IMG/VR virus record: IMGVR_UViG_2802429241_000010
Coordinates: 1-52,885 of that record
Length of the DNA: 52,885 nt
Source of the DNA: a virus
Lineage: Duplodnaviria; Heunggongvirae; Uroviricota; Caudoviricetes
Direction: 5' to 3' (one strand)
Shown here: positions 11,185 through 12,621 of the stretch, piece by piece
How the letters are laid out: each line of letters opens with the position of its first letter
Numbering within the stretch: the stretch's first letter is position 1
Position numbers and translations under genes: made by a program
Notes under the pieces: generated by a model
The model's input: the letters and a program-made list of their open reading frames with translations, nothing else
Told to the model about the DNA's origin: nothing
Database searches by the model: none

Positions 11185-12621
11185 TTATTTAATGGTTCTT
11201 CGGGCAGAAGCATACTGAGCAAATTTTGCGATTAGCTTTCTGAATTCATTTTCCCCCACATTCTGCCAAGCATTATACGTCTGGCTTATTCTGTTATAAG
11301 TTGATGACTTGCAGAAAAATACAAAACTACCTTTTATATACCTGCTGACAATTCTAGCGGTTTCAGGTAGAGGTTTACCTTGATACTCATTTATTTCCCA
11401 GCAATCTGGAGGTATGTAATTTCCAGGCGTAATTTCAACCATGTATTCATCCATCGTTGAACTAGTAACGGGACCCGAAATTTTCATTGGTTCGATTACT
11501 TCACATTCAAGACGAAAATAATTCCATTCGGGATCATGACCAAATGATTCAAATGAAAGTTTTTTGGGCTTTAAAATTTCAGCGCATCGTTCACAGACTA
11601 TAAGCGCGATAAATCCTTTTTCTGAGGCTGGTTCGACATAAATCAAATCGCTTCCCCCACCGGAAGGATAAAACATGTGATTTAGAGACTCCCTTCCAGC
11701 TATTAAATTGAGTATGTTTATTATGTCATCATTATTTGTCCACTCTACACTATTCGGTGTGCTGTATGGAAATAGTAGGTTTTGGATTTCGAACCATTCA
11801 GTTAAATTACGCTGGATGAAATCATTATTAATTTTTATCCAATTTTCAAGTTCTGTCTTAAACTCCGCAGCAGTTGGTCGCTGATACGGATCGTTATCTG
11901 TTGCGCGCACTAATAGGTCATCTAAGGGCGGTAGATATAGTTCTTTTATGTAGTTTGATAATCCGATATTAGATTTTGTGCTGTACTGACCATCAAAACC
12001 AAGATAGTCTTTAGTCAGAGACATCCATACTGATTTTGCCAGAGAGTAAATGTCTGCCGGGAGCCCATCAGCACGATTTGCTATCCGTCTCATTTCTGGG
12101 GCCATTGTGAATTTTGCGCCAACGTCTCGCATATCGGGTGTTAATTCGATTCTTTCAGGATATTTTACCAATCCAAAGTCCGCTAAAAATATCCTGCCAT
12201 TCAAATATAGAAGATTATCTGGCTTTATATCCCGGTGAGATATGTTTTGGTCATGGAGTTCTATAATGGTTTGAGTGAGATGAATGAATTCAGAGATGAT
12301 TGATAATGGATCTTTTTGCTTTACACTTTCTTTAAAGCTTTCAGCCAATGGCATAAGATACCAAGCTTGTTCTTTTTTTGCATTATCTGGAAGGTAAAAA
12401 TCAAGCAAAGGCATTACCCCATCTACTTTATTATCTTTCAAGAAATTAACTTCTACCTTGAATCTATTATAAGTTGATTCTTGTACATTTCTTAGTATTT
12501 TTAAAGCGAATGCTTCCTCGCCAGAACTTGAAGTTACAAGATACACATCTCCGTTCCCTCCGTCTCCTATGAAATCTTTTATGATATACCCATCAATTGG
12601 ACATGAAATTTTAGCATTCAT
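11185..12621 (-). CDS. Eukaryotic-like Ser/Thr protein kinase with uncharacterised C-terminal domain
   Basis: 478 aa; Gly-loop GDGGNGDV, catalytic Lys in ALK, catalytic loop HRDIKPDNLL, DFG, APE; C-terminal ~200 aa unassigned; strongly AT-rich. Confidence 0.85.
   Translation of the reverse strand: MNAKISCPIDGYIIKDFIGDGGNGDVYLVTSSSGEEAFALKILRNVQESTYNRFKVEVNFLKDNKVDGVMPLLDFYLPDNAKKEQAWYLMPLAESFKESVKQKDPLSIISEFIHLTQTIIELHDQNISHRDIKPDNLLYLNGRIFLADFGLVKYPERIELTPDMRDVGAKFTMAPEMRRIANRADGLPADIYSLAKSVWMSLTKDYLGFDGQYSTKSNIGLSNYIKELYLPPLDDLLVRATDNDPYQRPTAAEFKTELENWIKINNDFIQRNLTEWFEIQNLLFPYSTPNSVEWTNNDDIINILNLIAGRESLNHMFYPSGGGSDLIYVEPASEKGFIALIVCERCAEILKPKKLSFESFGHDPEWNYFRLECEVIEPMKISGPVTSSTMDEYMVEITPGNYIPPDCWEINEYQGKPLPETARIVSRYIKGSFVFFCKSSTYNRISQTYNAWQNVGENEFRKLIAKFAQYASARRTIK

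Follow-up and report, generated by a model that had tools for sequence, protein, structure and literature searches.

We describe here a single gene of an Escherichia coli prophage that encodes a Hanks-type Ser/Thr protein kinase joined to a conserved C-terminal domain (CTD), and we propose, with a rough probability of 0.55, that this kinase-CTD gene is a self-contained, prophage-carried anti-phage system of the Stk2-like abortive-infection type, a defense role that is read from its context. The gene lies in the window, by which we mean the whole 52,885-nucleotide stretch of IMG/VR record IMGVR_UViG_2802429241_000010 (Caudoviricetes) that was analyzed. To our knowledge, kinase-based immunity is among the least understood branches of anti-phage defense and has experimental support for Stk2, PD-T4-6 and KKP only, all of which are Hanks kinases able to act as toxic defense effectors. 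The kinase-CTD family is covered by no paper or curated model that we found, its public records saying just ‘protein kinase’, and current defense-finding models would miss the family or mislabel its members by their kinase core. It offers a compact one-gene system together with a conserved domain that has no relatives among solved structures.

The preliminary description of this DNA, made from its letters alone, had reported a complete Hanks core in the gene, and every motif that it quoted was located in the protein: GDGGNGDV at residue 19, ALK at 39 (with lysine K41), HRDIKPDN at 129, DFG at 148 and APE at 174. The Pfam Pkinase match covers residues 13-254 (E 3e-21), and the kinase proper extends over about residues 10-264, with the CTD of about 214 residues after it. 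Homology searching returned 710 homologues, the top 120 being full length and 45-100% identical, and the open reading frame (ORF) is therefore real, far beyond chance; an identical protein, WP_073535082.1 (P0001), is publicly annotated as ‘protein kinase domain-containing protein’. In an alignment of 46 homologues the invariant positions comprised G19/G21/G24 of the glycine loop, K41 and E57; H129-R130-D131, K133 and N136 of the catalytic loop with D148-F149-G150; and A174-P175-E176, D190 and R248. The catalytic core is thus intact and under purifying selection, and because none of the catalytic and structural Hanks residues varies among these homologues the kinase is predicted to be active and is expected to be Ser/Thr-specific and of the ‘RD’ type. 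The most conserved stretch of the whole protein is the activation segment (residues 161-200), in which T161 and T172 are invariant. An AlphaFold2 model gave two confident domains (pLDDT 89.1, pTM 0.82), and when the full-length model was searched with Foldseek its N-terminal half superposed on solved kinases, which were the sole returns. No membrane segment was found in the protein (maximum Kyte-Doolittle value over 19 residues, 1.05). The gene was also described as AT-rich, which the numbers bear out, its GC content being 37.0% versus 53.6% for the prophage backbone/structural region. A promoter-like site upstream of the start codon gives a weak hint that the gene may be expressed independently; matches to this consensus are rarer around the kinase gene than in shuffled sequence.

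The part after the kinase had been described as some 200 residues without a recognizable motif, and this was half right: no library annotates it, but it is a conserved domain with motifs of its own. Residues ~265-478 had no match in Pfam, NCBIfam, PADLOC, PDB or BFVD, the defense models being scanned up to E 1, and PHROGs gave nothing beyond one marginal match to a PHROG without assigned function; an enzymatic fold or motif was not recognized in it. When the CTD alone (residues 265-478) was used as query against 1.84 billion representative proteins, 814 clusters at 50% identity were returned, 615 of them at E <= 1e-10. Among the best 149 of these clusters, ~52 are stand-alone CTDs (200-260 aa), ~35 are kinase plus CTD (475-510 aa), ~12 carry an extra ~150-175 residues and ~30 an extra ~270-300 residues, and in the multi-domain proteins the N-terminal partner is always a kinase of the same type or its fragment. 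The invariant motifs of the CTD are LNHMF[YF]PxGGG, KPKKLxxESFG, WxYFRLE and GSFVFFxxxSxYN. Mean pairwise identity is 54% for the CTD versus 53% for the kinase domain, the CTD being the more conserved of the two in 66% of pairs. In an identity-based clustering the stand-alone and fused CTDs were interspersed, from which it follows that the CTD has been fused and released repeatedly and must fold and function alone. Together, these comparisons of sequences indicate that the CTD is a conserved, autonomous domain. In longer relatives the CTD is followed by a tail: P0133 and P0164 (~620-650 aa) have one of ~150 aa with a sub-threshold DUF3775-like match, and P0128, P0159 and P0186 (~710-780 aa) have an unannotated one of ~280 aa with the motif PSHLFTK...GDDS..N.LVID.DG...YNNYVGKYS. 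We also observed that the enterobacterial clade that includes the studied protein has AWQN (residues 451-454, window 11245-11256) where nearly all relatives have ARHN, so that this clade lacks two CTD residues that are conserved elsewhere.

The best PADLOC matches of the protein were to mad6 (88 bits, 2e-25), to PD-T4-6 models (<=84 bits), to Stk2 (56.6 bits) and to MkoA (56 bits), and all kinase matches were confined to residues 5-264, none extending over the CTD. The NCBIfam scores lay far under the curated cut-offs (MADS6, 65.7 bits versus 460; PknB-PASTA, 47.9 versus 450; PglW, 23.5 versus 990). Assignment to PD-T4-6, Stk2, MAD6 or PglW was rejected, as the matches were of the kinase core only. 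The preliminary description had brought in Stk2 and PD-T4-6 as defense kinases to which the gene might be linked; taken as membership this link is not supported, the hidden Markov model matches ending at the kinase core. A mode of action like that of Stk2 or PD-T4-6 is possible, but on these comparisons the gene appears to belong to neither family. Orthology to a housekeeping kinase, named earlier as an outcome that would speak against a defense kinase, was not found either, the PknB-PASTA score being as above and PASTA hits being absent.

Set beside the individual systems, the gene has both likenesses and differences. PD-T4-6 of E. coli UMB0949 (RRM76169.1) is likewise a single-gene, E. coli-borne Ser/Thr kinase with an uncharacterized C-terminal region, but the best of its models aligns over residues 5-200 and none of them matches the CTD. 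Validated by experiment, PD-T4-6 has 436 aa and a kinase at ~9-284 (Vassallo et al., 2022; PMC9519451), and because just ~150 residues come after that kinase it cannot hold the ~214-residue CTD. Stk2 of Staphylococcus epidermidis (Depardieu et al., 2016) is proposed to be an abortive-infection kinase that senses a phage protein. As a stand-alone Hanks kinase Stk2 is the mechanistic template for the studied gene, yet residues 18-207 alone align, to model positions 132-319 of 500, and the regions toward both termini differ. The KKP system of Pf prophages is a three-gene module of a phosphatase antitoxin and kinases with CSD or FHA domains, whose kinases toxically phosphorylate host proteins and block lytic phages and need their C-terminal non-kinase domains (PMC11341870). 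It shares with the studied gene a prophage-encoded Ser/Thr kinase with a C-terminal non-kinase domain, whereas the locus described here is a single gene with another C-terminal domain, with no adjacent phosphatase or second kinase and no CSD or FHA domain. MAD6 (of MADS) and PglW (of BREX type 2/Pgl) are also defense-associated Hanks kinases, but they act in multi-gene methylation-linked systems, and the kinase-CTD gene is without conserved partners. Finally, the housekeeping PASTA/PknB kinases have the same catalytic fold, whereas the studied kinase has no membrane segment and no PASTA repeat in Pfam, and its gene belongs to the accessory, mobile part of the genome and not to the core.

The genetic context of the gene places it in a variable cargo slot at one end of the prophage. 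A 51-nt direct repeat, of which the copy at 51436-51486 overlaps the 3′ end of tRNA-Thr(CGT) at 51441-51516, together with ORF 50263-51426, which is taken to be the integrase judging from its position beside the tRNA, delimits a prophage of ~41.8 kb. The kinase gene is located 1.5 kb inside the tRNA-Thr attachment (att) repeat, and the order inward from 9738 is a 205-aa ORF, the kinase gene, a capsid remnant, a PD-T4-3 match, the pin invertase and the tail-fiber/baseplate genes. The placement between the att repeat and an invertase/tail-fiber module (tail-fiber genes to the right of pin), and the reading of this interval as a slot for accessory cargo, had both been put forward in the preliminary description and both hold, the gene lying beside PD-T4-3 and related prophages carrying other cargo there. 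The PADLOC match of this neighbor spans the full length of the PD-T4-3 model, and PD-T4-3 was validated as a defense gene (PMC9519451). The PD-T4-3/pinE segment occurs in ~1,200 of 5,426 complete E. coli genomes versus three for the kinase segment, and the kinase locus is accessory on that count. Strains IrN and T16R keep the capsid remnant, and the cargo to its left differs: in IrN (L086 4073-5763) the slot holds two hypothetical genes with one weak PDC-S64 match, and in T16R (L087 4506-5780) a 424-aa ‘GTP pyrophosphokinase’ with a weak PDC-S33 match. In T16R, pinE is also interrupted by an IS26 resistance cluster (fosA3, rmtB, blaTEM-1). Elsewhere in the prophage of the window, an AT-rich two-gene operon (37096-38849, minus strand, GC 0.34-0.36) adjoins the holin gene and encodes a 155-aa and then a 429-aa protein, annotated DUF6575, which distantly and collinearly match PD-T4-10 A (E 3e-10) and B (E 1e-7); judged by these matches, it is probably further defense cargo of the same prophage.

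The kinase-CTD family can be recognized by a kinase with TMAPEMRR and DFGLVK[YF]P followed directly by the ~200-aa CTD in a single-gene unit, and the studied gene has this arrangement. Full-length relatives that are 45-57% identical were found in Vibrio, Shewanella, Pseudoalteromonas, Aeromonas, Acinetobacter, Paraburkholderia, Massilia and Desulfomicrobium, and a species-level genome scan found the family, always sparsely, in Alpha-, Beta-, Gamma- and Deltaproteobacteria, Bacteroidota, Bacillus, Fictibacillus, Clostridia, Verrucomicrobia, Myxococcota and others. Plasmid-borne members occur in Pantoea, Pseudoalteromonas, Rhizobium, Ensifer, Agrobacterium and Hymenobacter. When all ORFs of 55 loci were clustered, no recurring neighbor gene of the kinase was found, which agrees with the single-gene status suggested earlier, and the gene is mobile as a single gene. 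The Vibrio diabolicus copy has ~130-nt attC-like repeats on both sides, within an array of ~20 cassettes, and is thus a one-gene integron cassette. The Aeromonas jandaei copy is located between the portal gene (gpQ) and gpA of a P2-like prophage and adjoins a HEPN-RES gene, the gpQ-gpA interval having been defined as a P2 anti-phage hotspot (Rousset et al., PMC9122126). The family is in this way found repeatedly in defense hotspots. The Desulfomicrobium copy lies downstream of an integrase and a resolvase, the Acinetobacter copy is flanked by insertion sequences with a GajB-like helicase and an OLD-like ATPase nearby, and the Pseudoalteromonas copy is among conjugation genes and adjoins an HNH gene. 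Among the 150 nearest neighbors (two on each side at ~40 loci), strong PADLOC matches were to DRT reverse transcriptases, Lamassu LmuB, PDC-S31 and PDC-S05, and Pfam matches were to Mrr, PLD, ResIII, NA-iREase1, TnsD and recombinases, plus ordinary housekeeping genes.

We favor the defense role because the Hanks residues are invariant in a protein without a membrane segment, because the gene occupies an att-proximal slot beside PD-T4-3 in a prophage that also carries the PD-T4-10-like operon and whose relatives hold, in that slot, cargo weakly matching defense candidates, and because the family spreads patchily without a partner gene, as an integron cassette, in the P2 hotspot and among defense-type neighbors. 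We envisage that in a lysogen the kinase, soluble and catalytically competent, would be made from its own promoter and held quiet by the CTD, which would thus serve as sensor or gate. On infection by another phage a cue would bind the CTD or displace it, and the kinase would then autophosphorylate within its unusually conserved activation segment and phosphorylate many host and/or phage proteins, its presumed targets, so that phage growth would be halted. Several points weigh against this reading. The likeness to defense kinases is restricted to the generic kinase core, and a study of Streptococcus thermophilus found that ‘PD-T4-6’ calls can fall on the housekeeping PASTA kinase of every strain (PMC11514479), so that similarity in the kinase core cannot establish membership. 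A CTD this strongly conserved speaks against a sensor that evolves fast and is specific for a phage protein; it would better suit a domain that recognizes a conserved cue, serves as an autoinhibitor or adaptor, or is an enzyme. The Serratia and Shewanella copies are lone insertions among core genes without defense neighbors, and the defense-type neighbors of other copies form an uncontrolled tally that is suggestive. Literature searches on the family, the RefSeq accession, integron-cassette screens and defense kinases gave nothing specific that names the family. Lastly, a gene of a prophage could serve the phage instead, for example in counter-defense or control of lysogeny. If the gene should prove not to protect, this would still caution against taking the annotation ‘PD-T4-6-like’ as evidence of defense.

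The last of these points can be stated as an explanation of its own, in which the kinase acts on host proteins by phosphorylation, either adjusting lysogeny or induction or, during lytic growth, disabling host defenses, in the manner of the T7 kinase and of the lysogeny-control arm of KKP. The gene is prophage-borne in E. coli and in Citrobacter/Klebsiella-type and Aeromonas prophages, and there are documented cases both of phage kinases that disarm defenses (PMC13645617) and of prophage kinases that control lysogeny (KKP, PMC11341870); but many relatives live outside phages, on plasmids, in integrase islands, as an integron cassette or as lone insertions in chromosomes, and the gene, preceded by a promoter-like site of its own, is in the accessory slot at the prophage end and not in an early lytic operon, which leaves a service to the prophage unlikely. 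We consider it distinctly unlikely that the roles of the domains are reversed, the CTD being the effector (an enzyme or ligand-binding module) of a conflict system and the fused kinase its switch: its invariant polar residues, a conservation at least equal to that of the kinase, and its autonomy in about one third of the listed clusters, with stand-alone and fused forms interspersed, would suit an effector, but its lack of a recognized enzymatic fold or motif would not, nor would the AWQN replacement in the clade of the studied protein, and the tails after the CTD in longer relatives suggest an adaptor and not a terminal effector. That the gene encodes an ordinary signaling kinase carried by mobile elements, with no role in genetic conflict, seems improbable: some relatives do sit between housekeeping genes and the public annotation goes no further than a protein kinase, but against this stand its rarity in complete E. 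coli genomes, the absence of phosphatase, FHA or receptor partners and of membrane or PASTA segments, the housekeeping-kinase scores far under their cut-offs, and the recurrence of relatives in mobile and defense contexts. Least credible by far is an interbacterial toxin delivered as Hcp cargo by a type VI secretion system (T6SS), since the case for it, a 64%-identical homologue 130 bp downstream of an orphan tssD/Hcp gene on the megaplasmid of Pantoea sp. SOD02 (L089 6392-8437), in an arrangement typical of Hcp-cargo effectors, is a single one with no immunity gene following, and no Hcp, VgrG or PAAR gene was found near the other ~60 loci and no T6SS genes near the gene in the window.

The CTD is also encoded by phages on its own. 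IMG/VR yielded the full kinase-CTD seven times, in prophages, along with five stand-alone CTDs (204-249 aa), and in GenBank the Bacillus phage EZ-2018a carries a stand-alone CTD of 210 aa. The sites between tail-fiber and endolysin genes are a usual accessory slot of phages. In two cases (L076 and L080) the stand-alone gene is located between tail-fiber-type structural genes and the endolysin gene, and in another (L077) it abuts the endolysin gene. The possibility that these phages carry kinase and CTD as split genes was discarded, the ±6 kb around the stand-alone CTDs being free of kinase genes. An accessory or counter-defense role is possible for these CTD genes. We put forward more speculatively, and with little confidence, that the CTD is a new fold and the sensing or regulatory handle of a large, unrecognized family of single-gene defense kinases, and that the stand-alone CTDs of phages (EZ-2018a and Firmicutes-type phages) are decoys that would bind or titrate the kinase’s CTD or its activating cue. 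If true, the decoy reading would make a defense/counter-defense pair that shares one domain, and the phage-encoded CTDs could show how phages counter kinase immunity.

Coordinates of the kinase-CTD gene, its domains and surrounding features in the window, and of stand-alone CTD genes at other loci
Feature	Position	Strand	Remark
Kinase-CTD gene	11185..12621	minus	ATG-to-stop ORF, 478 aa + stop codon
Hanks-type Ser/Thr kinase domain, residues 1-264	11830..12621	minus	all catalytic residues present
CTD, residues 265-478	11188..11829	minus	conserved, unannotated
Promoter-like site TTGAAA-18 nt-AATAAT with TG	12672..12701	minus	~50 bp upstream of ATG; consensus match
att repeat, partial tRNA-Thr 3′ end, cargo-side prophage end	9688..9738		51-nt direct repeat with 51436-51486
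205-aa ORF downstream of kinase gene	10211..10828	minus	GC 47% versus kinase gene 37%
Capsid-gene remnant, inner edge of variable slot	~12959..13045	minus	pseudogene annotation in strain M8
PD-T4-3 (GIY-YIG) gene, immediate neighbor of kinase gene	13201..14025	plus	PADLOC E 3e-140, 464 bits; Pfam LEM-3_GIY-YIG
Pin-type invertase, bounds tail-fiber module	14083..14673	minus	Pfam Resolvase + HTH_7; annotated pinE
Stand-alone CTD genes in phages/prophages	L007:4983-5615; L076:5983-6597; L080:5974-6615; L077:3624-4373; L079:5947-6687		

The 205-aa ORF next to the kinase gene had no family match in any library scanned and none in the phage collection, and it co-occurs with identical E. coli kinase copies only. 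A two-gene system of this ORF and the kinase was considered and rejected on the differing GC content and the lack of a counterpart beside other homologues. The PD-T4-3 gene is flanked by a 26-nt direct repeat, 92% identical (13028-13053 and 14049-14074), which may be the trace of a cassette insertion. Inside ORF 43540-44481, at 44109-44183, a 15-nt unit (CAGATTTTGACGGGT-like) is repeated four to five times in tandem; the array resembles the iterons of a replication origin, and the ORF would then be a replication initiator gene.

To the left of the att repeat, outside the prophage, a DNA cytosine methyltransferase gene (5939-7009, plus strand) overlaps the gene of an HNH-type type II restriction enzyme (6988-7647, minus strand), and CbtA/YeeU toxin-antitoxin genes are close by. 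This restriction-modification pair and the toxin-antitoxin genes beyond att mark a second island in tandem at the same tRNA-Thr site. ORF 8105-9370 (plus strand, 421 aa), which gave no Pfam, PADLOC or NCBIfam match, has N-terminal CxxC pairs and matches PHROG 13366 (function unassigned) at E 3e-157.

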